Shown here in pieces: positions 23,647-53,551 of a stretch of 64,000 nt of DNA. The translations under genes were made by a program, and so were the position numbers. Source of the stretch: an uncultured Actinomycetes bacterium (GTDB lineage Bacteria; Actinomycetota; Thermoleophilia; Gaiellales; Gaiellaceae); contig CAWJFT010000001.1 of the NCBI GenBank assembly GCA_963842235.1, positions 882,368 to 946,367 of the forward strand. Reading direction: 5' to 3'. The notes under the pieces are model-generated. The model was not told where the DNA came from. It searched no databases and worked only from the letters and a program-made list of their open reading frames with translations. The stretch's first letter is position 1. Every line of letters starts with the position of its first letter.

Positions 23647-24768
23647 ATGAACGTCGGCGTCCCCAAGGAGATCAAGCCGGACGAGTACCGCGTCGCGCTC
23701 ACGCCGGCAGGTGCGCTCGAGCTCACCCGCGACGGCCACTCGGTCGTGGTCGAGCAGGGAGCGGGGGAGGGCAGTGCCTTCAGGGACTCCGACTACAGCA
23801 GCGTCGGAGCGCGAATCGGCTCCGTCGCGGACGTTTGGGAGGCCGAGCTCATCCTCAAGGTCAAGGAGCCGCTGCCCGAGGAGTACACGAGGCTGCGCGA
23901 GGGTCAGGTGCTCTTCACCTACCTCCATCTCGCCGCGAGCGAGGATCTGACCCGGGCGCTGATGGAGAGCGGCGCGGCGTGCGTCGCATACGAGACCGTG
24001 GAGACGGACGACCGCGCGCTTCCGCTCCTCGCGCCGATGAGCGAGATCGCCGGCCGCCTTGCGGCGCAGGCCGGTGCGGCGTTCCTGGAGAAGCCGGTCG
24101 GTGGCCAAGGGCTCCTCCTCGGAGGCGTCCCGGGCGTGGCGCCGGGCGAAGCGGTGGTGATCGGTGGAGGGATGGTCGGCTACAACGCGGCCGTGATCGC
24201 GCTGGGGCTCGGCGCGCAGGTCACGATCCTCGAGCGCTCCATCGATCGGATGCGGCATCTGGAAGAGGTGCTCGGGTCGCGCGTCACGCTCCTGATGTCG
24301 TCCGGCCTCCAGATCCAGGAGTCGGTCGCGCATGCCGATGTCGTCATCGGCGCGGTGCTCATCCCCGGCGCGCTGGCGCCGAAGCTGATCACCCGCGAGA
24401 TGGTCGCCGGCATGAAAGACGGCTCAGTGATCGCCGACGTTGCGATCGACCAGGGCGGCTGTGTGGAGACGTCACGACCGACGACGCACTCTGAGCCGGT
24501 CTTCGTCGTCGACGGCGTCATCCACTACTGCGTCGCGAACATGCCCGGTGCCGTTCCGATCACCTCTACGAAGGCGTTGACGAACGCCACGCTGCCGTAT
24601 GTCGAGGGGATCGCGAACGAGGGTCTCCGCGAGGCGATCGCCCGTGATCGCGCGCTCGCGCGGGGTGTGAACGTGCTCGAAGGGAAGGTGACGTACGAAG
24701 CTGTGGCCGAAGCACACGGCCTCGACTTCACCCCGCTGGACGAGGTCCTCAGGTTCTCCCCGGTCTAG
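23647..24768 (+). CDS. ald: alanine dehydrogenase
   Basis: MNVGVPKEIK..EYRVALTP, VKEP, GGVPGV..VIGGGMVGYNAA, DVAIDQGG, HYCVANMPGAVP. Confidence 0.95.
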   Translation: MNVGVPKEIKPDEYRVALTPAGALELTRDGHSVVVEQGAGEGSAFRDSDYSSVGARIGSVADVWEAELILKVKEPLPEEYTRLREGQVLFTYLHLAASEDLTRALMESGAACVAYETVETDDRALPLLAPMSEIAGRLAAQAGAAFLEKPVGGQGLLLGGVPGVAPGEAVVIGGGMVGYNAAVIALGLGAQVTILERSIDRMRHLEEVLGSRVTLLMSSGLQIQESVAHADVVIGAVLIPGALAPKLITREMVAGMKDGSVIADVAIDQGGCVETSRPTTHSEPVFVVDGVIHYCVANMPGAVPITSTKALTNATLPYVEGIANEGLREAIARDRALARGVNVLEGKVTYEAVAEAHGLDFTPLDEVLRFSPV

Positions 24769-24992
24769 TGCCCCATCCAGCAATACATGCCGGCTTCTGG
24801 CCCGCGATCACGCGGCGCCAGAGCCCACCCTCCTCCTCACCAAGGTCTACAGACCTTGGCTCGTCGGAGTGCGAACTCTGGATTCGGACGGTCGTACCGG
24901 CGAAGCCGGCACGACCTCTGCTGGTCGGCGCCGACGAGTCGGCGCCTTGGGCTCGCGACCCAGAATTCCGGCGGCATTACCGGACGGGGCAC
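24768..24992. mobile_element. MITE copy A (225 bp, imperfect TIRs about 19 bp, TA target duplication)
   Basis: GTGCCCCATCCAGCAATAC at the left end matches the reverse complement of the right end (GTGCCCCGTCCGGTAATGC). It is flanked by TA/TA. The first 114 nt match copy B at 113 positions. Confidence 0.8.
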
Positions 24993-42367: not shown

Positions 42368-42780
42368 CGCAGGCGACCGGGAAGGACCGGCTCGGGCGGG
42401 TCGCGGAACGCCTCGATCGTGAGCCGGCACGCCATTCCGAACGACATCAGGATCATTGCGATGACGCCGCCGATGAGCATCAGTCCCGCGTCAGTCAAGG
42501 GCGAGATCTCAGGCTCGATCGGTTTCGAAATCGGGAGCGAGACGACGAAGGAGACGAACGGCAGTGCGAATGCCCAGAGCCGCGGGACGAGAAATCCAGT
42601 GAGCGGCTGGATCAGCATGCCGACGCCGAAGTAGGTCCAACCGAGTGCTTCGTCGTCGAGTGCCGTGTTCTTGTAGGTGAAGACGAAGACGACGGCCAGA
42701 AGCGCGTACACGACGGCAGTCACCCGCTGAACGGTCACGTCGGCACTGTTCCACAGCGTCTCGTCCTTGACACCGAACAT
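42364..42780 (-). CDS. hypothetical membrane protein
   Basis: Four hydrophobic segments and no family recognised. The start is ambiguous: ATG 42780 (MFGVKD...) or ATG 42810. The extra 10 codons of the longer form are simply the two SOS boxes read as EHVF/EHMF. Confidence 0.55.
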   Translation of the reverse strand: MFGVKDETLWNSADVTVQRVTAVVYALLAVVFVFTYKNTALDDEALGWTYFGVGMLIQPLTGFLVPRLWAFALPFVSFVVSLPISKPIEPEISPLTDAGLMLIGGVIAMILMSFGMACRLTIEAFRDPPEPVLPGRLR

Positions 42781-42787
42781 ATGTTCG
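42774..42787. promoter_or_regulatory. LexA (SOS) box CGAACATATGTTCG
   Basis: Perfect 14-bp palindrome matching the Gram-positive/actinobacterial CGAAC-N4-GTTCG consensus, 22 nt upstream of the imuB ATG. Confidence 0.7.
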
Positions 42788-42791
42788 TGAT

Positions 42792-42805
42792 AGAACACGT
42801 GTTCG
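42792..42805. promoter_or_regulatory. second LexA (SOS) box AGAACACGTGTTCG
   Basis: GAAC-N4-GTTC palindrome ending 4 nt upstream of the imuB ATG. Confidence 0.65.
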
Positions 42806-42808
42806 GTC

Positions 42809-43993
42809 ATGATTGCCTGCCTTGCCATCCCCGGATTCGAGCTTCGCGCCGCGCTTCGCAAGCGGCCTAGCCTCGTGCTTCAGCCCGCCGCGCTCGCGCC
42901 TCCCGAGGGTGCCGAGCCGCTGATCGGGCCCATCACCGCCGCGGCCGACCAGGCCGGCGTCAGGCCCGGCATGCGCATGGGGGAGGCGCTCGCGACCTGT
43001 CCGAAGCTTGTTCTCGTCGAGCCCGACCCTGCCTCGGCCGAGCGTGACTGGGAGGAGATCGTCCGCAGCCTGGAGGATTCCGGTTTCGCCGTCGAGTCGA
43101 TCGCGCTCGGCACCGCCTATTTCGACACGCGCGGGGTGGAGCGCCTCTACGGCGGCCTCGAAGCGGCGCTCAAGCGCGCCCTCGCCGCGGTCGGCTCACA
43201 CTGGGACGCGCGCGTTGGTGCGGCCACCCGCCGCTTTGCCGCACTCGCGGCTGCCAACGTCGCGCGCCCAGGCCAGGCGCTGATCGTCTCGGACGAGCAC
43301 ACGAAGGATTTCCTCGCACCGCTCCCGCTCCGCCTGCTCGGACTGGACGAGCGCCGCCGTGAGGAGTTGGAAGCGCTGGGCGTGAAACGTGTTGGACAGC
43401 TTGCCGGGCTCCCGGGCGCTGCTGTGGCCGAACGACTGGGACCGGACGGTCGCAGCGCCTGGGGCCAGGCGAGAGGGGGGAAGCGCGGTCGCATCTGGGG
43501 ACGACGCCCGCCGGCCGAGATCTTCGAGGTGCTCGAGTTCCCCGAGGCGGTCGGCAACGAGCTCACGCTGCGCCGGGCGCTCGCCACCCTCGTCGACCGG
43601 GCGCTCAGCCGCCAGGAACGCGCCGATCGTTTCGTCCGAAAAGTTGCACTTTCGGCACGACTCGTCGGCGGAGCGTCCTGGCGCCGAACGTTGACGTTCC
43701 GGGAACCGGCTGGAGAGCCCGACCGCCTCCGCATCGCGCTCGGGCCGAAGCTGAACGATCTGCCCGCGCCGGTGCTGGCGCTCCGGCTCGAGCTCACGGA
43801 GCTCACGGAGTCGCGCGGACAGCAACTCGAGCTCGTGAAGCCGGAAGGCGCCGAGCTCCAGACGAAGCTGAAGGAGGGGTTGCGTCAGGTGAAGGCCAGT
43901 ACAGGCGGTGGAGCCGTCGCCAGTGTGGTCGAAGTCGCGCCGTGGTCGCGAATTCCGGAAGCACGAGCGCTGTTCGTGCCGCGGGACGACTAG
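42809..43993 (+). CDS. imuB: ImuB, Y-family-polymerase-like subunit of the SOS mutasome
   Basis: MIACLAIPGFELRAAL, GVRPGMRMGEALATCP, YFDTRG, LGVKRVGQLAGLP. It sits behind SOS boxes with dnaE2 downstream. Confidence 0.85.
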   Translation: MIACLAIPGFELRAALRKRPSLVLQPAALAPPEGAEPLIGPITAAADQAGVRPGMRMGEALATCPKLVLVEPDPASAERDWEEIVRSLEDSGFAVESIALGTAYFDTRGVERLYGGLEAALKRALAAVGSHWDARVGAATRRFAALAAANVARPGQALIVSDEHTKDFLAPLPLRLLGLDERRREELEALGVKRVGQLAGLPGAAVAERLGPDGRSAWGQARGGKRGRIWGRRPPAEIFEVLEFPEAVGNELTLRRALATLVDRALSRQERADRFVRKVALSARLVGGASWRRTLTFREPAGEPDRLRIALGPKLNDLPAPVLALRLELTELTESRGQQLELVKPEGAELQTKLKEGLRQVKASTGGGAVASVVEVAPWSRIPEARALFVPRDD

Positions 43994-44456: not shown

Positions 44457-45227
44457 CTATCGGCCGCGGGCGCGCGCGGCGAAGCCGCCGTCGGGCGCGT
44501 GGAGGTTGAAGACGCGGGCAGGCGCGATCGGGCGGAAACCGTGCGTGAAGTGGGGCGGGGCGGCCACGTATGTCCCGGAACCGGCTCGGACCGTCTCGTC
44601 TCCGAGGAGAAAGTCGACCTCGCCGTCGAGGACGAAGAAGGAATCGACGTGGTCGTCGTGGTGGTGGGGGTCGACACCTTCCCAACGCTCGTCGAAGACC
44701 ATCTCATGGAGCGAGAGCTGCGGCGTCTCGGCCCTGATCGTGTTCTCGAGCAGCCGGCGCTTCAGCGGCTCTCCGCCGTCGGGGCCAGCCACGATCGCCT
44801 CGGCCGGGCCGTACGGCTCGTCGACGTCGTAGCTGTCCCAGTCGACCCTGACGCCGTCACGGGTCAGCCGGCGGATGTACTCGATGAAGCCGCCGTCGGG
44901 GGCATGGATGTTGAGGTAGTGCGCTCCGCCTGGCCCGGGGTTCGTGAAGCCGTGGACGATGTTCGGCGGGATCGCAACCGACGTGCCGGCACCGGCCAGG
45001 AGGGTCTCGGTCCCGTTCGTGAACTCGAGCTGTCCTTCGAGGACGTAGAACGCGTCGACGTGCTCCTTGTGGAAATGCGGGCCGGGGCCCTCGAAGTCCG
45101 GCCCCACGGTGACCTCATTGACCGAGATCTCGGGCCGCTCGATCTTCACGACGATCCGCTCGTTCAGCCGCTCGCCCTCGCCGGGGCCTAGGAAGACGCC
45201 TTGGGCTACATCGAGCTCCATGCGCAC
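44457..45227 (-). CDS. bicupin protein (two cupin barrels)
   Basis: Two copies of the G.HFH/HHH..E..YVLEG/FVLDG cupin motif with downstream P.HGF. Confidence 0.8.
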   Translation of the reverse strand: MRMELDVAQGVFLGPGEGERLNERIVVKIERPEISVNEVTVGPDFEGPGPHFHKEHVDAFYVLEGQLEFTNGTETLLAGAGTSVAIPPNIVHGFTNPGPGGAHYLNIHAPDGGFIEYIRRLTRDGVRVDWDSYDVDEPYGPAEAIVAGPDGGEPLKRRLLENTIRAETPQLSLHEMVFDERWEGVDPHHHDDHVDSFFVLDGEVDFLLGDETVRAGSGTYVAAPPHFTHGFRPIAPARVFNLHAPDGGFAARARGR

Positions 45228-48200
45228 TCAGCCTATTCGTTCCTCGACGGCGCCTCGCTGCCCGAGGAGCTGGCGGTGCGGGCAGCAGAGCTCGGCTACG
45301 AGGCGCTTGCGCTCACCGACCACGAGGGCGTCTACGGCTCGCTCGAGTTCGCACACGCGGCGAAGGCGTTCGGCGTCCGGCCGATCACGGGCGCCGAGGT
45401 CGCGCTCGCCGACGGCTCGCACGTCACGCTGCTGGTCGAGGGCCAGCGCGGTTACGCGAACCTCTGTCGCCTCTTGACGGCGGCGCACGCACACACCCGT
45501 CCGAAGGAGGGCGAGCGTGCAGTCGACCCGGCGCTCGATCAGGCGCTGCTCGAGGAGCTGAACGACGGCCTCGTCTGCCTCTCCGGCTGCTCGCGCTCGG
45601 GGCTCGCCGTCCGAAACCCGAACGCCGCTGCGCGACTGGCCCGAGCGTTCGGCGCCGAGCGCTTCTTCGTCGAGCTCCAACGGCCGTTCGAACGCGGAGA
45701 CGAGCGGCGGAACGCGCGGCTCCGTGACCTCGCCGAGGCGCTCCGGGTGGAGGCCGTCGTCACCGGCGACGTTCACGCCCACGATGCGGCTCGCGTGCGG
45801 CTCCAGGACACGCTCGTCGCGATTCGCCACCGCACCTCGCTCGAGGGCTCGGAGCCGGAGCGCCGCGGGAACCACGAGGCGATCCTGCGCGCGCCCGGGG
45901 AGATCGCCGACCGCTTTCCACTCGACCATGAGGCAGTCGAGCGGAGCGCACGCATCGCCGAGCGCTGCGAGTTCGACCTGACCCAGGAGCTCGGCTACCG
46001 CTATCCGGACTTTTCGGACCAGGCCGAGCCGGCCATCGGGCAGCTCGCCGGCGTCTGCAACCACGCCTTCGAGGCGCGCTACGGAGCTAGTTACAACTTG
46101 TTACTAGCTCGGGCTCGCGCCCGCCTCGAAGAGGAGCTGAAGCTGATCGACGAGCTCGGGCTCGCCGGCTTCTTCCTGCTGCACCACGAGGTGCTCGAGC
46201 TCGCCCGCGACGTCGCGAACGAGGTCCGGGGCCGCGACTCCCCGCGCAATTCACTCCCACCCGGCCGGGGCCGCGGCAGCTCCGTCGGCTCGATCGTCTG
46301 CTACCTGACCGGGCTCTCGCATGTCGATCCCGTTCAGGCCGACCTGTCTCTCGGGCGCTTCATCAACCGTGAGCTCGACGCCGTCCCCGACATCGACCTC
46401 GACTTTCCGCGCGACATTCGCGAGAAGCTGATCGTCGCGGTCACCGAGCGCTACGGCCGCGAGCATGCGGCGCTCGTCGCCAGCTTCTCGACCTACCGCT
46501 CGCGAGGAGCGATCCGCGACGTTGGCAAGGCGCTGGGGCTCCCGTTCGGCGAGCTCGAGCGGCTCGCGCGGGTCTCGGACGGCTGGAACGCGAAGCGCGT
46601 CGCCGAGGAGCTCCGCCTCGTCCCCGGCTTCGAGGACAAGGCGGACTCGCCGCGCTGGCGTGCCTTCGCCGAGCTCACCCACGAGATCGCGGGCCTCCCG
46701 CGCCACATCTCGCAGCACCCGGGCGGGATGGTGATCTCGTCGCGGCCGCTCGTCGAGCTCGTCCCGGTGCAGCCGGCGGCCATGGTCGGCCGCCAGCTTT
46801 GCCAGTGGGACAAGGACTCCTGCGACGACGCCGGCTTCCTCAAGATCGACCTCCTCGGGCTGGGGATGCTCTCCGCCGTCGAGGAGTGCGTCGATCAGAT
46901 CGCACGGCTCCGCGGTGAGCCGATCGACCTCTCGCGCATCCCGTTCGACGACAAGGAGGTCTACGTGCAGATCCAGGCGGCGGACACCGTCGGCGCCTTC
47001 CAGATCGAGAGTCGCGCGCAGATGCAGAGCATCCTCCGCACCCGGCCGGAGACGCTCGAGGACATCATGGTGCAGGTCGCGCTCGTCCGCCCCGGGCCGA
47101 TCCAGGGCAAGGCCGTGCATCCGTACATCGCGCACCGCCAGCGGCTGCGGGAGGATCCGAGCTTCGTCCCGCCCGTCGATCACCCGCTCCTCGCCGAGCC
47201 GCTGAAGGAGACGCTCGGCGTCGTCGTCTTCCAGGACCAGGTGCTGGAGGTCGCGATGGCGCTGTCGGGGTTCAGCGTCGGCGAGGCGGAAGGGCTGCGC
47301 CGCGCAATGAGCCGCAAACGGAGCGAGGCGGCGCTCGAGGCGTACCGGAAGCGGTTCGTGGAGGGAGCGGCGGCGAACGGGGTCGAGGAGCGGCTGGCGA
47401 ACGAGATCTACGACAAGCTCGTCGGCTTCTCCGGCTTCGGGTTCCCGAAGTCTCATGCGGCGGCCTTCGGGCTGCTGGCCTACCAGTCGCAGTGGCTGCG
47501 CTGCCACTATCCGGCTGAGTTCCTGGCCGCGCTGTTGAACGCGCAGCCGATGGGCTTCTATCCGCCGGCGACGCTCGTGCGGGACGCACAGCGGCGCGGG
47601 GTGGAGGTGCTCCCTCCGGACGTCAACCTCAGCGAGGCGAAGTGCACCGTCCAGGACGGGAAGGTGCGGATCGGGATCGAGTACGTGACGTCGATCGGTG
47701 AGGACGATGCGAAGGCGCTGGTCGACGAGCGCGGGCGCGGCGGGCCGTTCCGGTCGGTGCGTGACCTGGCGCAGCGGGCGCCGCTCCGCCGCGAGGGGCT
47801 CGAGGCGCTGATCTCGAGCGGCGCGTGCGCCGAGTTCGGCGACGAGCCGCGGCCGCTGCTCTGGGAGGCCGGGCTTGCGCCGCGGTCGACGTCGGTTCCG
47901 GGGTCGGGAGGAGAGGAGCGCCAGCTGGCCCTGTCTCTGGATCCCACGGTCGAGACGCCGGAGCTCCCGGAGCCGACCGACTGGGAGCGCATGCTGACGG
48001 ACTACCGGACGACGAGCCTCACCGTCGGCGTCCATCCGTTGAAGCTGCTCCGGCCGCATCTACCCGAGCAGGTCCTTTCGAGCCACGACCTGGGACAATC
48101 CCTAGACCGGGCGCAAGTGGCCGTGGCGGGAATGGCGATCGCGCGCCAGCGGCCGGCGACCGCGAACGGTGTCGTCTTCATGCTGCTCGAGGACGAGTTC

Positions 48201-48425
48201 GGGCAGATGAACCTGATCGTTCCGCCGACGGTGTACGACCGCCATCGCGCGATCGTCCGCGGCGAGCCGCTGATCCTCGCGCGAGGGCGCTTCGAACGGC
48301 AGGGCCGGAACCAGAACGTGCTCGTGCGAGAGCTGGAGACGCTGGGCCCGCTCGCACGACAGGTCGCCGACGTGCCGGAGCTTGCCTCCTCGCTCCCGCC
48401 GGCCCATCACTTCGGCCACCGCTAG
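45201..48425 (+). CDS. dnaE2: error-prone DNA polymerase III alpha-like subunit DnaE2 (ImuC)
   Basis: TTG 45201: YIELHAHSAYSFLDGAS (PHP domain), GRGSSVGSIVCYL, PDIDLDF, HPGGMVIS, FQIESRAQM, 1074 aa. It lies downstream of imuB. Confidence 0.9.
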   Translation: MGYIELHAHSAYSFLDGASLPEELAVRAAELGYEALALTDHEGVYGSLEFAHAAKAFGVRPITGAEVALADGSHVTLLVEGQRGYANLCRLLTAAHAHTRPKEGERAVDPALDQALLEELNDGLVCLSGCSRSGLAVRNPNAAARLARAFGAERFFVELQRPFERGDERRNARLRDLAEALRVEAVVTGDVHAHDAARVRLQDTLVAIRHRTSLEGSEPERRGNHEAILRAPGEIADRFPLDHEAVERSARIAERCEFDLTQELGYRYPDFSDQAEPAIGQLAGVCNHAFEARYGASYNLLLARARARLEEELKLIDELGLAGFFLLHHEVLELARDVANEVRGRDSPRNSLPPGRGRGSSVGSIVCYLTGLSHVDPVQADLSLGRFINRELDAVPDIDLDFPRDIREKLIVAVTERYGREHAALVASFSTYRSRGAIRDVGKALGLPFGELERLARVSDGWNAKRVAEELRLVPGFEDKADSPRWRAFAELTHEIAGLPRHISQHPGGMVISSRPLVELVPVQPAAMVGRQLCQWDKDSCDDAGFLKIDLLGLGMLSAVEECVDQIARLRGEPIDLSRIPFDDKEVYVQIQAADTVGAFQIESRAQMQSILRTRPETLEDIMVQVALVRPGPIQGKAVHPYIAHRQRLREDPSFVPPVDHPLLAEPLKETLGVVVFQDQVLEVAMALSGFSVGEAEGLRRAMSRKRSEAALEAYRKRFVEGAAANGVEERLANEIYDKLVGFSGFGFPKSHAAAFGLLAYQSQWLRCHYPAEFLAALLNAQPMGFYPPATLVRDAQRRGVEVLPPDVNLSEAKCTVQDGKVRIGIEYVTSIGEDDAKALVDERGRGGPFRSVRDLAQRAPLRREGLEALISSGACAEFGDEPRPLLWEAGLAPRSTSVPGSGGEERQLALSLDPTVETPELPEPTDWERMLTDYRTTSLTVGVHPLKLLRPHLPEQVLSSHDLGQSLDRAQVAVAGMAIARQRPATANGVVFMLLEDEFGQMNLIVPPTVYDRHRAIVRGEPLILARGRFERQGRNQNVLVRELETLGPLARQVADVPELASSLPPAHHFGHR
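46089..46105. repeat. 17-nt near-palindrome AGTTACAACTTGTTACT, copy 1 (inside dnaE2)
   Basis: Identical string at 51350-51366 and 51417-51433, read directly. Confidence 0.9.
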
Positions 48426-48433
48426 CGAAAGAG

Positions 48434-48739
48434 CTAGAGCTCGTCGATCTCGAGCGCGAAGCGGGGCAGTCGCTCGTGTACCGCCTCGTTGAACGCGGCG
48501 GCGTACTCCTCGACTGCGTCGGCATCGAGCGTGGCCGCGTAGCGGTCGCGCATCTCGGCGAGCGTCTCCGTTCCGAACTCGACGAGCTCCTGAAAGCGGC
48601 CGAAGACCTCCTCGGCCTCCTCGCGGTCCGCACGGTCATAGGCTCGCTCGGCCTCGTCCACGCGGGCCAGGAACTCGGCATCCTCCTGCTCGAAGAGGTC
48701 GAGCTGGCGGTCGATCAGCTCCGCGAACCGGCCCGGCAC
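48434..48739 (-). CDS. hypothetical acidic protein
   Basis: ORF 48434..48787. GTG 48739 is the likelier start because it avoids overlapping the divergent gene. No motif recognised. Confidence 0.5.
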   Translation of the reverse strand: MPGRFAELIDRQLDLFEQEDAEFLARVDEAERAYDRADREEAEEVFGRFQELVEFGTETLAEMRDRYAATLDADAVEEYAAAFNEAVHERLPRFALEIDEL

Positions 48740-48757
48740 GCGCCCTAGAGTAGTTCC

Positions 48758-49531
48758 GTGGTCGTCCGGACCTGGAACATCTTCCACGGCAACACGTTTC
48801 CGCCGGGACGCAGGCGCTATGTGGAGGAGATGGTGCGGATGGTGACCGAAGGAGATCCTGACGCGGTGTGCCTGCAGGAGGTGCCGCCGTGGTCGCTAGA
48901 CCGGCTCGGCGAGTGGAGCGGGATGCATGTCTTCGGAAAGGTGGCCGCCCGTCCGTCCATCGGGCCGCTGCCGTCGAGCTCGGAGATCGGTCGGCACCTC
49001 ACGGATCTCAACCCCGGCTTTTTTCGCTCCGGCTTCGAAGGGCAGGCGAATGCGATCCTCGTGCGTCGTCCCATCGTCGCCCGCCATGCGCTCACGCTGA
49101 ACCCGTTCCGTTTTCGCCTCGAGGTTGCTCGCCGCCTCGGCCTGCCGCTGATCCGGCAGCTCGCGTGGGCGAAGGAGCGCCGTCAGGCGATCGCGGTCCG
49201 CCTCGACGACGGCACGCTGCTCGTCAACCTCCACGCGACCCACGCGCGCGACGTGCGGATCCCCGAGGCGGAGGTGGAGCGCACCGTGCACTGGGCCGGC
49301 CTGCTGGCAGGCGACGATCTCTGCGTCCTGGCCGGCGATCTCAACGTCGACACCCACCGCTCGGAGGTCTTCGGGCGGCTCGACGGCTTCTCGGCCGCGG
49401 GCCCAGGCGTCGACCACGTGCTCGTGCGAGGCGCGAAGGTGAGCGAGTACGACCGGTGGGGCATCGACCGACGCACTCTCGGCGACCTCGTCCTGTCCGA
49501 TCATGCCGCGGTCGAGGTGGAGATCGAGTGA
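48758..49531 (+). CDS. endonuclease/exonuclease/phosphatase (EEP) family protein
   Basis: TWNIFHG, VCLQEV, VNLHATH, LAGDLN, SDHAAVEVE. Confidence 0.8.
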   Translation: MVVRTWNIFHGNTFPPGRRRYVEEMVRMVTEGDPDAVCLQEVPPWSLDRLGEWSGMHVFGKVAARPSIGPLPSSSEIGRHLTDLNPGFFRSGFEGQANAILVRRPIVARHALTLNPFRFRLEVARRLGLPLIRQLAWAKERRQAIAVRLDDGTLLVNLHATHARDVRIPEAEVERTVHWAGLLAGDDLCVLAGDLNVDTHRSEVFGRLDGFSAAGPGVDHVLVRGAKVSEYDRWGIDRRTLGDLVLSDHAAVEVEIE

Positions 49532-50610
49532 CCTTCGAGGAAGCGCGGGCCGCGTTTCCGGTCCTGGCGCGGTACGCATACCTGAACGCCGGCTCGGTCG
49601 GGCCGATGGCGCAGTCGACGTACGACGCCGTCGTAGAAGCGGAACGGGACGAGTTGGGCCCGCGTGGAAGCCACCCGGCCTTCGAGCGGATCATCGAGGA
49701 GCGGGAGCGGCTTCGCGGAGTCGTTGCGGCTGAGATCGGGGTCGATGCGGAGCGCATGTCGCTGACGACGTCCACGTCCGAAGGGTGCCGCGTCGTGCTC
49801 GGGGGCCTCGACCTGCGCCCGGACGACGAGATCGTCACGACCGACGCGGAGCACTTTGGCCTCCTCGGCCCGGTTCACGCTTCGGGCGCGCGGGTCCGGG
49901 TTGCGAAGGTGCGGGACCGCCCAGCCGACGAAGCGCTTGACGCCATCATCGGCGAGGTCGGCCCCCGGACGCGCCTCGTCGCACTCTCGCACGTCCTATG
50001 GATCACCGGTCACGTTGTCCCGATCGGGGCGCTGAAGGAGGCCGTCTCCGCACCGCTGCTCGTCGACGGCGCGCAGTCGGTCGGCGCGATCCCCGTGAAC
50101 GCCGAACCGTTCGACTTCTACACCGTCTCGGGGCAGAAGTGGCTGTGCGGGCCGTCGCCGACCGGCGGGCTCTACGTCCGTGATCCCGAGCGCCTGCATG
50201 TGGCGGCGCCGAGCTACTTCTCGCAGCGCTCTTATGAGCCGGACGGCTCGTTCGTCCCCAGCGAGGGCGCTCGTCGCTTCGACCAGAACTGGATCCCCGC
50301 GGCCTACATCGCCGGGCTCGAGGCCGCAATTGCGGCAGCGCCAGAGTGGCGCTTCGAGCGTTCCCGCGAGATCACCGAACGCTGCCGCGAGCGGCTCGTC
50401 GACGCAGGCCACGACGTCGTCACCGAGCCGGGACACTCGACGCTGGTCTCCTGGCGCTGGGAAGGTGACACGAAGGAGGTCGTGAAGCGGCTCTACGAGG
50501 AGGGTGTCGTCGTCCGCGATCTGCCTGGGACCGGCCTCCTCCGCGCGTCCTGCGGCTACTGGACGAGCGAAGAGGACATCGACCGGCTGATCCGCATACT
50601 TCCGGCATGA
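49528..50610 (+). CDS. class V aminotransferase / cysteine desulfurase-like PLP enzyme
   Basis: GTG 49528 (GTGA overlap). YLNAGSVGP, VDGAQSVGAIP, DFYTVSGQKWLCGP (PLP Lys). Confidence 0.85.
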   Translation: MTFEEARAAFPVLARYAYLNAGSVGPMAQSTYDAVVEAERDELGPRGSHPAFERIIEERERLRGVVAAEIGVDAERMSLTTSTSEGCRVVLGGLDLRPDDEIVTTDAEHFGLLGPVHASGARVRVAKVRDRPADEALDAIIGEVGPRTRLVALSHVLWITGHVVPIGALKEAVSAPLLVDGAQSVGAIPVNAEPFDFYTVSGQKWLCGPSPTGGLYVRDPERLHVAAPSYFSQRSYEPDGSFVPSEGARRFDQNWIPAAYIAGLEAAIAAAPEWRFERSREITERCRERLVDAGHDVVTEPGHSTLVSWRWEGDTKEVVKRLYEEGVVVRDLPGTGLLRASCGYWTSEEDIDRLIRILPA

Positions 50611-50641
50611 GGGACTCCGACTCTGTAGCGCCGGGCATTTG

Positions 50642-51280
50642 ATGGCGACGGTCACGGTCCGCGGCATCGGGAACGCGAGCACGAGTCCGGACGAGGCGTC
50701 CGTCACGCTCGTGATCGAAGCCTTCGAGCAGACGGCTGCCGCCGCCCTCGCCAAGGTCGCCGAGCAGACGCAGGCAGCGATCGAGCTTTGCGACTCGCTC
50801 GGAATCAAGCCCGCAGCCCGCGTGACGACAGGAGCCAGCGTGGCCGAGCACGGCGAGCACGACCGGGATGGAAGATGGCAGCACCGCGGGTATCGCGCGT
50901 GGAACCAGGTCGTCGTGCGGGTTGGCGAGGCCCCGGTCGTCGGCGAGCTGATCGCCGGCGCCGTGGACCGAGGCGCTCAGGTCAACGGCCCAGCCTGGAA
51001 CATCGCCCCGGACAATCCAGCCCACGCTGTGGCCTGCCGGGAGGCGGCACTCGACGCCCGGCGGCGTGCCGAGGCCTACGCCGATGCGCTCGGCGCCCGT
51101 GTAGGCGCGCTCGTCGCCGTTCGCGACCCAGGAACGGGCCCCGTGCCGCCGCCTCCGCGCCCGATGCGGATGGCGGCGATGGACGCAGGCGCTGTGGAAG
51201 CCCTCCCAGTGGAGGTCGGCGAGCAGATCGTCACGGGGGTCGTCGAGGTGGAGTTCCAGCTCGAACAGGGAAGCGCGTGA
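50642..51280 (+). CDS. SIMPL/DUF541-family protein
   Basis: VTVRGIGNASTSPDEASVTL..A.A..KVAEQT... pattern and overall length. The family is recalled from memory. Confidence 0.7.
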   Translation: MATVTVRGIGNASTSPDEASVTLVIEAFEQTAAAALAKVAEQTQAAIELCDSLGIKPAARVTTGASVAEHGEHDRDGRWQHRGYRAWNQVVVRVGEAPVVGELIAGAVDRGAQVNGPAWNIAPDNPAHAVACREAALDARRRAEAYADALGARVGALVAVRDPGTGPVPPPPRPMRMAAMDAGAVEALPVEVGEQIVTGVVEVEFQLEQGSA

Positions 51281-51349
51281 CGCTCCGCTTGGTCCTTGCG
51301 CTCTCGCACTACAGATCCGCGACGAGGTCCAATCGAAACGTAGCCCGCT

Positions 51350-51366
51350 AGTTACAACTTGTTACT
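51350..51366. repeat. 17-nt near-palindrome, copy 2
   Basis: AGTTACAACTTGTTACT in the 3'-3' intergenic gap. Confidence 0.9.
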
Positions 51367-51416
51367 TGGGTTGGACCGCCGCGAATCAGCGCATGCCACA
51401 GGCGTTTCGGCCGGCA

Positions 51417-51433
51417 AGTTACAACTTGTTACT
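51417..51433. repeat. 17-nt near-palindrome, copy 3
   Basis: AGTTACAACTTGTTACT, here extended to the 21-nt palindrome CAAGTTACAACTTGTTACTTG. Confidence 0.9.
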
Positions 51434-51476
51434 TGCCCAGTCGGCGAAGCACCCCGAGCGCCTCGAACGGCGAGCT

Positions 51477-52052
51477 TCAGGCGGCGTCTGCGGCGGTCCT
51501 CAGTCCGAGCTCGCCGGCGATCGGCTTCATCGCGTCCGTGACGGTCTGAATGTGCTCGTCCAGCTCGACGCCGAGGAGCTCCGCGCCGGCGTAGACCTCG
51601 TCCCGGTGGACGCCTGCAGCGAATGACGGCTGCTTGAGCTTCTTCTTCACGGACTTCGGAGTCAGCGTCTCGATGCCGTCGGGCCGTACGAGCCCGCAGG
51701 CGTGAATGAACCCGGCCAGCTCGTCGCACGCGAAGAGCGCACGCTTCAGATCGGTATCCCGCGGCATCTCCAGATGCTCCGCGTGCGAGAGCACTGACTC
51801 GATCAGCTCCTCCGGATAGCCCTCCTCGCGCAGGATCGCCGCGCCGTCCTGGGGGTGTTGGTCGAGCGTCGGATGGATCTCGTAGTCAAAGTCGTGCAGC
51901 AGCGCCGTGGCGGCCCAGAACTCCTCGTCGCCGCCGAATTTCCGCGCATAGGCGCGGGTGGCGGCCTCCACCGCCAGCGCATGACGCAGGAGTGCCTGGC
52001 TCTTCGTATAACGATTGAGGGTCTCCCAAGCCAGGTCCCTAGTGACCTCCAT
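51477..52052 (-). CDS. HD-domain phosphohydrolase
   Basis: C-terminal 191 aa of ORF 51477..53180: [24 protein letters not shown]. Confidence 0.8.
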
Positions 52053-52076
52053 AACACTGAGTACGATAGTCCGCTC

Positions 52077-53390
52077 GTGTCCACGACTCTCGTCGCAGAC
52101 GCACTGATGGAGAGCTTCGTCATCGAGGGGGGCATCCCCCTCGGCGGCCGCGTCTCCGCTGCCGGAAACAAGAACGGCGCGCTGCCGATCCTGGCCGCGA
52201 CGCTGCTCGCGACCGAGCCTGTGGTGCTGAGCAACGTCCCGCGGATCCGGGACGTCGAGACGATGCTCGCTCTGCTCGCCGATGTCGGAGCCGACGTCGA
52301 CTGGCTCGGGCGGAACGAGGTCCGGATCGACTCCGCCAATGCGAGCAAGTTCGAGCTCGACCCCGAGCTCTGCAGCCGCATCCGCGCATCCTTTCTCCTG
52401 GCCGGCCCACTGCTTGCCCGTTTCGGGCGGGCGAGCGTGCCGCCGCCGGGCGGCGACGTGATCGGAAGGCGCCGGCTCGACCCGCACATCCATGCACTCG
52501 CCGAGCTCGGCGTCGAGATCGAGCTCAACGGCCGCTTCGACATGCAAACGTCGGGCCTTCAGGGGCGGCGGATCTTCCTCGACGAGGCGAGTGTCATGGC
52601 GACCGAGAACGCGATCATGGCCGCTGCGGTGGCGCGCGGCGAGACGGTGATCGGGAACGCCGCCTGCGAGCCGCACGTCCAGGATCTCTGCCGGTTCCTC
52701 TGTTCGCTTGGGGCGAGCATCGAGGGGATTGGCTCGAACGTCTTGCGGATCCGCGGCGTTCAACAGCTCTCGGGCGGCGAGTGGCGGATCGCTCCGGAGC
52801 ACATCGAGGTCGCGAGCTTCATCGGGCTCGCGGCGGTCACGGGCGGCGACGTGACCGTCGAGAACGTCGACATCGACGACCTGGTATCGATCCTCCCCGT
52901 CTTCGCCCGGCTCGGCGTGCACGTCGAGCTCGGAGAGTCGAGCGTGCGCGTCCCGCCCGGCCAGGAGCTGAAGATCGAGGACGACCTCGGCGACCAGATC
53001 CCGAAGATCGAGGACGGCCCGTGGCCGGCGTTCCCCGCCGACCTGACCTCGATCGCTCTCGCCGTGGCAACGCAAGCGGAGGGCACGGTGCTGATCTTCG
53101 AGAAGATGTTCGAGAACCGGCTGTTCTTCGTGGACAAGCTGGTCAGCATGGGCGCGAGGATCATCCTCTGCGACCCGCACCGCGCCGTCGTCACCGGCCC
53201 CGCGAAGCTGTACGGACAGCGCATGGCCAGTCCGGACATCCGCGCCGGGATGGCGATGTTGATCGCCGGTCTCTGCGCCGAGGGGGTCTCGACGATCGGA
53301 AACGTGGGCGAGATCGACCGCGGCTACGAGCGAATCGACGAACGGCTGCGCGCGCTCGGTGCGCGTATCGAACGCGTGGAGAACGCCTAG
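52077..53390 (+). CDS. murA: UDP-N-acetylglucosamine 1-carboxyvinyltransferase
   Basis: [60 protein letters not shown]. The start is GTG 52077 or ATG 52107. Confidence 0.93.
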
Positions 53391-53551
53391 TGCCCCATCC
53401 AGTAATACATGCCGGCTTCTGGCCCGCGATCACGCGGCGCCAGAGCCCACCCTCCTCCTCACCAAGGTCTACAGACCTTGGCTCGTCGGAGTGCGAACTC
53501 TGGCTTGGTGCTCGCGACCCAGAATTCCGGCGGCATTACTGGAAGGGGCAC
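53390..53551. mobile_element. MITE copy B (162 bp)
   Basis: GTGCCCCATCCAGTAATAC ... GCATTACTGGAAGGGGCAC, flanked by TA/TA. It lacks the 64-nt internal module of copy A. Confidence 0.8.

Follow-up and report, generated by a model that had tools for sequence, protein, structure and literature searches.

The stretch of DNA analysed here (the window, 64,000 nucleotides of a Gaiellaceae contig, 69% GC) carries three identical copies of an AT-rich 17-nucleotide near-palindrome, AGTTACAACTTGTTACT, at 46089-46105, 51350-51366 and 51417-51433, all on the + strand. One copy lies inside dnaE2, which encodes an error-prone DNA polymerase III (Pol III) alpha subunit. The other two occupy the 196-nt gap separating convergent SIMPL/DUF541 and HD-domain genes. 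Dinucleotide shuffles of the window lead to an expectation of 0 copies, and a search for GTWAC-N5-GTWAC with one mismatch allowed finds nothing beyond these three in the 64 kb. The features at the two loci are:

45201..48425, + strand: dnaE2, error-prone Pol III alpha, 1074 codons (Pfam PHP, DNA_pol3_alpha, finger and HHH_6)
46084..46110, no strand assigned: solo palindromic site in dnaE2, core 46089-46105, a 13-1-13 palindrome GAGCTAGTTACAA-C-TTGTTACTAGCTC
50639..51280, + strand: SIMPL/DUF541 gene, 3' end towards the pair (Pfam PF04402, E 4e-41)
51348..51368, no strand assigned: intergenic site 2, first of a phased pair, core 51350-51366
51367..51416, no strand assigned: spacer between sites 2 and 3, 50 nt, GC-rich, unconserved between loci, no excess structure
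51415..51435, no strand assigned: intergenic site 3, second of the pair, core 51417-51433
51477..52100, - strand: HD-domain gene, 3' end towards the pair, start approximate (Pfam PF01966; stop at 51477)

An earlier sequence-only reading had described the motif as an 8-1-8 palindrome with one T:T mismatch, a longer symmetry in dnaE2 (GAGCTAGT...ACTAGCTC, 46084-46110) and flanking AGCT, and all of these are present. The dnaE2 copy is in frame, as that reading had also noted, and encodes S297-Y-N-L-L-L302. Its impression by eye that the codons are rare is borne out by counting over 9,440 codons in 20 window genes: TTA is one of 953 Leu codons, CTA and TTG make up 1.5% and 3.5% of Leu codons, AGT 3.3% of Ser codons and GCT 6.5% of Ala codons. 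Given the amino acids, the probability of these codons is ~6e-11. This site stands by itself, with no partner within +-200 nt, where the best matches are at background level.

The intergenic copies form a pair. The core of site 2 begins 69 nt past the SIMPL/DUF541 stop codon, the core of site 3 lies 42 nt beyond the stop of the - strand HD gene (orthologues 189-196 aa in loci L002, L004 and L005), and the two are 67 bp apart centre-to-centre, or ~6 helical turns. Site 2 is kept in related loci at 97% (L001), 92% (L134) and 86% (L003) nucleotide identity while the spacer diverges. For the spacer of this pair, length alone appears to be constrained.

Comparison of dnaE2 across orthologues places the solo site in evolutionary context. 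The closest homologues of the product are named error-prone DNA polymerase and come from Gaiellaceae. The best 120 DnaE2 homologues, on which the comparison is based, are 1072-1075 aa long, like the query, start-codon differences aside, and in every one of them the position of the site corresponds to a loop of 9-10 residues. This loop lies 5-10 residues ahead of a conserved helix that aligns to residue 323 of E. coli Pol III alpha in the PDB alignment. In most orthologues it reads G-G-A-N-G-H-K-R-N; in 32 of the 121 DnaE2 sequences it reads S-N-K-L-L-L, S-N-T-V-L-L, S-N-S-L-L-L, S-D-N-L-L-L or similar. Some orthologues carry a 21-aa insertion here, which argues that the loop is a permissive spot for holding a DNA signal.

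At the DNA level, the motif-type loop is encoded in all ten loci with DNA compared (10/10) by the same codons, AGT AAC Ann nTG TTA CTn, that is, AGTAACA-N3-TGTTACT. The motif occupies identical dnaE2 codons in orthologues that are 96, 94, 89, 85 and 79% identical, from L001 (97% nucleotide identity) down to L163 (79% amino acid identity), and the AGT/AAC/TTA/CTW codons persist although the gene has 90% GC at third codon positions. An orthologue without the motif, L006, has other residues in GC-rich codons, and the same residues in unrelated GC-rich codons were not found in the loci compared. The central bases vary, with ACACWGTGT in L002, L164 and L163. The suggestion that the 17-mer is a protein-binding site thus gains support at the DNA level, with motif-type residues always in AT-rich codons and motif-less orthologues differing in residues. 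These codon patterns show that the constraint in the dnaE2 loop acts on the DNA.

The alternative suggestion, that the dnaE2 copy is an in-frame insertion or footprint, did not survive the comparison. An insertion, an excision footprint or a miniature inverted-repeat transposable element (MITE) should add length, and between orthologues that have the motif and those that lack it the difference is 0-1 residue; moreover, the AGCT repeats belong to the palindrome and are absent at the other copies. Equal length and a shared codon position, down to 79% identity, identify an old conserved feature of a variable loop rather than a 21-nt addition. On a neighbour-joining tree of the orthologues the motif state switches at least 10 times, which fits an old site with repeated decay.

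The neighbourhood of dnaE2 includes the following elements of the SOS response:

42774-42787 and 42792-42805, no strand assigned: two canonical LexA (Cheo-type) boxes, CGAACATATGTTCG and AGAACACGTGTTCG, 4-35 nt upstream of the imuB-like gene
42809..43993: imuB-like gene (Pfam IMS)

Between imuB and dnaE2 lie small open reading frames (ORFs) and, on the opposite strand, a cupin gene (44457..45227), which overlaps the start of dnaE2; dnaE2 has no SOS box of its own. A LexA operator was rejected as the identity of the 17-mer, which reads GTWAC-N5-GTWAC and not CGAAC-N4-GTTCG. The canonical boxes precede imuB instead, showing that the 17-mer is not the SOS box of this organism. Directly downstream of dnaE2, at 48434-48787 (- strand), is a conserved ORF of ~101 aa that has no Pfam match and has orthologues in L001-L006, L164 and L165, wherever the locus extends past dnaE2.

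The 17-mer is the core of a larger site. Aligned copies define a palindrome of ~23 bp, sCw-AGTWACAA-S-TTGTWACT-wGs, with the 23-mer form CCAAGTTACAACTTGTTACTTGG. With T at positions 4 and 14, the window form mixes two perfect palindromes, AGTTACAA-S-TTGTAACT and AGTAACAA-S-TTGTTACT, each of them commoner than this hybrid. A scan of one genome per GTDB species with the pattern W-17mer-W returned 36 stretches, of which 18 are contigs of 66-72% GC from metagenome-assembled genomes (MAGs) labelled Gaiellaceae, Thermoleophilia or 'Actinomycetes'; by our own estimate, base composition alone would yield ~1e-4. The remaining stretches are chance matches in AT-rich genomes. In JGI metagenomes, CWAGTWACAASTTGTWACTWG recovered at least 120 loci, and among the matches listed 114 of 120 are 65-75% GC. 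A relaxed pattern finds 49 sites in 363 kb of GC-rich loci, where 0.2 are expected. The frequency of the 17-mer is therefore far above compositional expectation and position-biased, which favours a real DNA element. Together, these distributions show a site family that, as judged from the scans, is restricted to the Gaiellaceae (Thermoleophilia) lineage. The dnaE2 copy is, by its motif and codons, an unpaired member of this family, held in a permissive polymerase loop by AT-rich codon choice. Exact 17-mer matches number 1-5 per MAG, and ~155 kb of protein-ascertained flanks contain no further site beyond the ascertained ones; as a rough estimate, there are tens of sites per genome. No literature linking Gaiellales with palindromic repeats was found.

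Dereplication of the contexts by flanking sequence leaves at least 94 that are distinct, with 136 sites, distributed as follows:

Between tandem genes: 34 clusters
Between convergent genes: 27 clusters
Between divergent genes: 7 clusters
Inside an ORF: 13 clusters
At a contig edge: 13 clusters

Among the 13 clusters inside ORFs, only the dnaE2 site lies deep in its gene; the others are at ORF edges. The median distance from a site to the nearest stop codon is 25 nt, and to the nearest start codon 56 nt, so that the family is biased to the 3' ends of genes. Genes beside the sites share no common function. The bias to stop codons, the scarcity of divergent contexts and the mixed neighbours argue against a promoter regulon. 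At one locus, L127, a site pair comes after an HD-GYP gene, and the next gene directly beyond the pair (652-1425) encodes a homing-endonuclease-associated-repeat protein (PF18780).

About half of intergenic loci contain two sites, and the distances between them are not arbitrary. In 35 independent pairs the centres are 54-56, 65-67, 76-78, 88, 99, 109-114 or 135 bp apart, with only 94 and 104 bp out of register. At a period of 11.1 bp the Rayleigh R reaches 0.70, the phase being near 0, as compared with a null maximum of 0.56 in 5,000 simulated sets; the pairs are helically phased. Orthologous pairs may differ by exactly one step (55 vs 66 bp). The spacers themselves are 38-118 nt long, have the GC content of the genome, are unrelated in sequence between loci and fold no more strongly than shuffles (mean z +0.16). 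With spacers that are unrelated and unstructured and distances that step by 11.1 bp, spacer length in helical repeats is the only visible constraint. Spacing by integral turns means that two bound dimers would face the same side of the helix, and the phased pairs point to what would be the signature of two protein dimers on one DNA face. In vivo looping periods reported for AraC and LacI are ~11.0-11.3 bp, and the ~11.1-bp period of the pairs agrees with this helical repeat.

The neighbours of the sites include one recurrent gene, encoding a protein of ~98 aa. The ORF adjoins sites in 12 motif-ascertained loci; in 10 of these a site lies on each side, the two being 360-394 bp apart, and the other 2 are cut by the contig end. 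The linkage also holds when loci are ascertained through the protein, with sites within 100 nt of the gene in 3 of 3 cases (L286, on a 769-kb contig; L287; and L288/289, which has a 54-bp pair upstream with a GTGAC variant and none downstream). The upstream site lies ~52-57 nt before the start codon in 4 of the 6 loci measured by eye, and the downstream site 12-14 nt past the stop wherever measured. In every locus examined, then, the 98-aa gene is linked to sites beside it.

This protein belongs to a family of 418 clusters at 50% identity. Except for three seemingly spurious JGI labels, its members are all called 'hypothetical', and those named at NCBI are all from Gaiellaceae. The family has no Pfam match; its distant members give only sub-threshold Pfam hints (HTH_Tnp_1, MarR_2 and Cdc6_C), and a profile search against PDB sequences yields nothing informative, its matches being confined to designed helical repeats and Beclin coiled coils. 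The AlphaFold (AF2) model is a five-helix bundle in which helices 1-3 have pLDDT ~90. Its best Foldseek matches are weak but are mostly helix-turn-helix (HTH) DNA-binding domains: TnsB, MuA I-gamma, Tc3, the Orc1 winged helix, Myb and homeodomain. Helix 3 opens with the segment G-x-x-R-P-S-Y-x-R-x-R, in which the invariant residues are concentrated. Within this segment, E48 (RPSYER) is present in 14 of 14 loci in which the residue is covered and the flanking sites have an ACAAsTTGT centre. Q48 (RPSYQR), present in 10 of 33 family members, is found in the sole gene flanked by an ACACwGTGT centre, ACACAGTGT. Residue 48 of the putative recognition helix may thus vary with the site centre, as this pattern suggests. 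Because the ACACWGTGT centre is also that of the dnaE2 sites in L002, L164 and L163, the sites, that in dnaE2 included, seem to track the specificity of the 98-aa protein. Taken in aggregate, linkage and fold suggest that this uncharacterised HTH-like protein is the most likely binder of the palindrome.

Other observations on the gene concern its surroundings. One subtype adjoins genes for Xer-like tyrosine recombinases, which are ~50% identical paralogues, in L150 (5902-7952), L182 (2-1217), L205 and L255. The 98-aa gene lies between two recombinase genes in L150, L205 and L255, and L182 shows one before the contig ends; to our knowledge, adjacent xerC/xerD-like genes are unusual in Actinobacteria. 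The other subtype adjoins an SDR gene or other genes (L145, L197, L286 and L287). In L176, L217, L286 and L287, repeated (T)GGCAC motifs 11-13 nt apart were seen by eye 5-40 nt downstream of the upstream palindrome, ahead of the 98-aa start codon. These may represent a promoter or a second operator. A sigma-54 promoter was rejected for them, the spacing being wrong by eye.

The structural and comparative data can be brought together in one proposal, to which we assign a probability of about 0.55: a sequence-specific, dimeric, Gaiellaceae-restricted protein, probably the ~98-aa family, binds the ~23-bp palindrome that has the 17-mer at its core. The 98-aa protein would bind the palindrome as a dimer and bridge phased pairs. 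Across a distance of 5 to 12 turns of ~11.1 bp, two dimers would sit on the same side of the DNA and could bind cooperatively or form a loop. Complexes at gene ends could then stop transcription or insulate neighbouring units from it, or serve as anchors for small loops or topological barriers; such roles are the most plausible because the sites follow genes closely and occupy convergent gaps. In dnaE2, the solo site (~890 nt into the gene) would be an intragenic roadblock that limits full-length transcription until the protein is released. Our best guess, made from site placement, is that bound sites would act as roadblocks, insulators or loop anchors, and the dnaE2 site as a roadblock.

Several points weigh against this proposal. 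The 98-aa gene is not in the 64-kb window, and copy number per genome is an estimate only, from partial genomes. The fold assignment is weak, with a best Foldseek E of 0.8 and none at or below 0.001. The correlation of E48/Q48 with the site centre comprises one Q48 locus, and the E48 loci are phylogenetically non-independent. Placement at 3' ends rather than promoters means that there is no classical regulon and that the physiological role is a prediction. Finally, the arms of the palindrome co-vary: positions 4 and 14 complement each other in 76% of sites, as compared with 48% expected from base frequencies, and the unconserved flanks at +-11/12 co-vary modestly, with complementarity above expectation. 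Independent recognition of half-sites does not predict this co-variation, a hint that the arms may pair as a hairpin or cruciform or that one may convert the other. It may reflect occasional hairpins or cruciforms with arm conversion, two paralogous homodimers that differ in their preference at position 4, or a structural need of the complex.

Arm complementarity is also what keeps two hairpin-based explanations alive, at low probability. The site could be an extragenic palindrome of the repetitive extragenic palindromic (REP) or REPIN (REP doublet forming hairpin) kind, a hairpin spread or kept by a transposase-like enzyme of the RAYT (REP-associated tyrosine transposase) or another type, with the dnaE2 copy a tolerated in-frame occupant comparable to the Rickettsia palindromic elements. 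Sites that follow stop codons in many unrelated contexts (94 clusters), with convergent outnumbering divergent ones 27 to 7, would suit such an element, as would the occurrence of both singles and pairs, the folding of every site into a hairpin of -9.6 to -15 kcal/mol, and the Foldseek matches of the 98-aa protein, the best of which are transposase DNA-binding domains. However, only ~23 bp are held in common, and since the pair spacers and flanks are unrelated, the pairs did not spread as REPIN-like units. Spacing quantised at 11.1 bp would be unexpected for transposed hairpins, orthologous positions are kept across 79-97% divergence even inside a coding region, and copies apparently number tens, not hundreds, per genome. 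No target-site duplication was seen by eye in a few flanks, no transposase is linked, and the 98-aa protein is too small for catalysis. We consider this explanation unlikely. A role in RNA, as a hairpin in the 3' untranslated region that terminates transcription or shields against 3' exonucleases, and that in dnaE2 causes ribosome pausing or RNase cleavage, draws on the same stable hairpins with maintained arm complementarity and on the median of 25 nt to the nearest stop codon; the lack of a canonical intrinsic terminator in 45-52.5 kb also suggests that another device may be needed. Against it, the stems are AT-rich with no U-tract, both orientations relative to the upstream gene occur, and terminators do not have to be nearly the same in sequence from one unrelated locus to the next. 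A 1-nt loop leaves positions 8 and 10 unable to pair, yet they are symmetric in all dnaE2 variants (A/T, C/G and G/C). Spacing by the helical repeat with unstructured spacers has no RNA rationale, and the Rfam 15 covariance models give 0 matches in the window. This role is less probable still.

Two further explanations retain a DNA-binding protein but differ in its identity. The palindromes could be recombination sites of the Xer-like tyrosine recombinases, with pairs as substrates for inversion or excision and solo sites as excision remnants. The recombinase genes adjoining the 98-aa gene and its sites in four loci fit this idea, the 23-bp palindrome can be read as 8-bp arms around a 7-bp centre, and about half of the sites are solo. 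Yet spacer orientation is constant in orthologous loci (the window, L001, L134, L003 and L193/L248), with no flipped spacer in the orthologous pairs compared, albeit in noisy BLAST output. Tyrosine recombinases would have to act on loops of 55-135 bp, at or under their size limits, dozens of mutually recombining sites would scramble the chromosome, and the second 98-aa subtype is not beside recombinases; we regard recombination as highly improbable. The sequence-only reading had noted a resemblance, weak in its own view, to the operator of BldD, an Xre-type regulator dependent on cyclic di-GMP. The BldD box is 13 bp, 5'-TNAC(N)5GTNA-3', and BldD occurs throughout sporulating actinomycetes with homologues 77-99% identical (PMC4151990). 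In layout the resemblance stands: T3-W-A-C6 / N5 / G12-T-W-A15 fits this box in all intergenic and most dnaE2 variants, and an HD or HD-GYP gene adjoins sites in the window and in L127. The variant in L002, L164 and L163, AGTAACACTGTGTTACT, also fits what we take to be a longer, older consensus, nTnACnC(A/T)GnGTnAn. The link goes no further than layout. Gaiellaceae lie outside the sporulating actinomycetes, tblastn with S. coelicolor BldD (query sequence checked against PDB 4OAY/2EWT) finds no homologue in ~1.3 Mb of DNA from partial genomes, and the linked 98-aa protein is unrelated (hhalign probability 0.25%). Only 7 of the 94 context clusters fall in divergent promoter regions, which the sites avoid, and a motif of 17-23 bp specifies far more than a box with 8 defined bases. 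A BldD-like regulator is the least probable of these candidates, with very little chance of being correct.

Other candidate identities were rejected outright. An intrinsic (Rho-independent) terminator would not have AT-rich stems with no T-run after them, and none that is terminator-like was found in 45000-52500. A CRISPR mini-array is contradicted by the limit of two sites per GC-rich locus and by spacer lengths that step by 11 bp. A MITE or REPIN unit was set aside since BLAST similarity between pairs is fully explained by the shared sites. An OmpR/PhoB direct-repeat box (GTTACA-N4-GTTACA) can be read only in the window variant; true palindromes make up 76% of sites, and CCAAGT...ACTTGG in the flanks is an inverted arrangement. 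The same 15-mer in the OmpR box of A. caldus is a literature coincidence. A phage origin was likewise discarded: IMG/VR matches to AGTAACA-N3-TGTTACT are nearly all AT-rich chance matches, and two contigs of 68% GC are at chance level.

The searches brought up several other repeats. The window contains a non-coding repeat of its own, 98% identical over 120 nt, at 24765-24884 and 53387-53506 (insertion ~53391-53550), whose copies directly follow the stops of an alanine-dehydrogenase-like ORF and EPSP synthase. It includes the palindrome CCAAGGTCTACAGACCTTGG and folds into three hairpins (minimum free energy -52 kcal/mol, z -4.1). At the orthologous spot in the 97%-identical L001 the repeat is missing, and a 96% match lies at a different place in a related MAG (L139 5020-5189). 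It has the look of a small mobile element, either MITE-like or a small RNA. In metagenome contigs of 47-52% GC (L240, L270, L273 and L180), tandem arrays with a 132-nt period consist of a ~97-nt conserved repeat with CCAAGTAACAACTTGTTACTTGG followed by a ~35-nt variable spacer. These are CRISPR-like in layout, with an unusually long repeat, and come from an organism unrelated to Gaiellaceae; the 23-mer that they have in common with Gaiellaceae sites is probably coincidental.

Two groups of matches lie near contig ends. Viral contigs in IMG/VR, 1-9.5 kb long and 32-41% GC, have AGTAACAA(A/T)(T/C)TGTTACT 30-80 nt from the end. It has conserved flanks (atcagt...caagtc) in L013, L028-L030, L042, L043, L049, L078 and L120 and stands in reverse in L052, L055, L069, L075, L077, L085, L122 and L123. 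This is probably the conserved terminal hairpin of one virus family. In Zhenpiania hominis BX12 (L133, L146, L148, L149 and L153-L155), the 19-mer of the genome scan occupies positions 51-69 from many contig ends, as the end of a repeated element, probably an insertion sequence, that breaks the assembly and is unrelated to the Gaiellaceae motif.

A broader form of the proposal, which is tentative and on balance doubtful, describes an undescribed Gaiellaceae system. Here, a ~98-aa HTH family with no Pfam or PDB relative would bind 23-bp palindromes at gene ends and bridge them where they form helically phased pairs, as they often do. In a genome of 70% GC these complexes would serve as terminators made of protein, as insulators or as topological barriers, and the protein would gate full-length dnaE2 independently of LexA. 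A scan of 7.5 kb (45-52.5 kb) finds no sigma-70-like promoter and no canonical intrinsic terminator. If such a system exists, a DNA-binding site would be maintained in an essential-type coding region purely through synonymous, loop-tolerant codons across deep divergence, and genome-wide operator pairs would be constrained only by an in vivo helical repeat of ~11.1 bp. The pairs would then allow DNA looping in an uncultured soil lineage to be read from comparative genomics, and an orphan small protein family would acquire a candidate function. The translesion polymerase DnaE2 may, in that case, have intragenic roadblock control besides the LexA control of imuB.

Among known systems, the REP elements, bacterial interspersed mosaic elements (BIMEs) and REPINs of E. 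coli and Pseudomonas offer a likeness in distribution. They too are dispersed, short, imperfect extragenic palindromes, lineage-specific, occurring as singles and pairs within ~100 bp of gene 3' ends and in convergent gaps, and the sites described here show this same placement. REP elements are bound by the host proteins IHF and gyrase. Here, however, only the ~23-bp site is conserved, with unrelated spacers and steps of ~11 bp. REP and REPIN copies number hundreds to thousands, whereas these apparently number tens and have no linked RAYT, and unlike REP or REPIN sequences the present sites are orthologously conserved over long divergence, one of them inside a conserved coding region. REPIN doublets as copies of one unit were rejected, the spacers being unrelated and ranging from 38 to 118 nt.

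Chromosome-organising systems resemble the family in other respects. The sites of parS/ParB, matS/MatP, SBS/SlmA, NBS/Noc, Ter/Tus and Ter/RTP are 13-23 bp long, AT-richer than the genome and present in few to tens of copies per chromosome. Codon choice permits their placement within genes, and the gene for the binder can lie beside its own site, as for TerB-tus, Ter-rtp and parS in parB. RTP in particular, a small winged-helix protein that forms dimers, binds cooperatively to paired sites. Read on the opposite strand, the 17-mer also contains GTTGTAACT (plus A in copies 1 and 2), a 10-nt match to what we take to be the E. coli Ter core. In contrast to these systems, the linked 98-aa protein has no ParB, MatP, SlmA, Tus or RTP domain, the bias to 3' ends is a feature here and not of parS-, matS- or Ter-type sites, and the symmetry of the site means that it is not polar as Ter is. 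A terminus or fork trap of the parS or Tus-Ter type was rejected, with no GC-skew switch in the window and no cognate domain in the linked protein.

Regulatory systems offer a likeness in architecture. The looping operators of lambda CI, LacI (O1-O3), AraC (I1-O2), GalR and DeoR are likewise paired palindromic sites for dimers at integral helical turns, and the gene of the regulator itself carries sites. Those operators act at promoters of defined operons, whereas most pairs here are at gene ends or in convergent gaps, in at least 94 unrelated contexts with no evident promoter. The BldD box is also a pseudo-palindrome bound by a dimer, but here the taxon differs, the motif is longer and stricter, and its sites are not at promoters. 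We know of no dedicated bacterial roadblock-terminator system of the kind proposed. Functional parallels are the roadblock terminators (Reb1 and TTF-I at rDNA, mTERF, and LacI, CodY and CcpA), in which HTH or Myb-like proteins bound past or inside genes halt the polymerase. Purely by analogy, likeness to these proteins would explain both the placement of the Gaiellaceae sites at gene 3' ends and the intragenic site in dnaE2.

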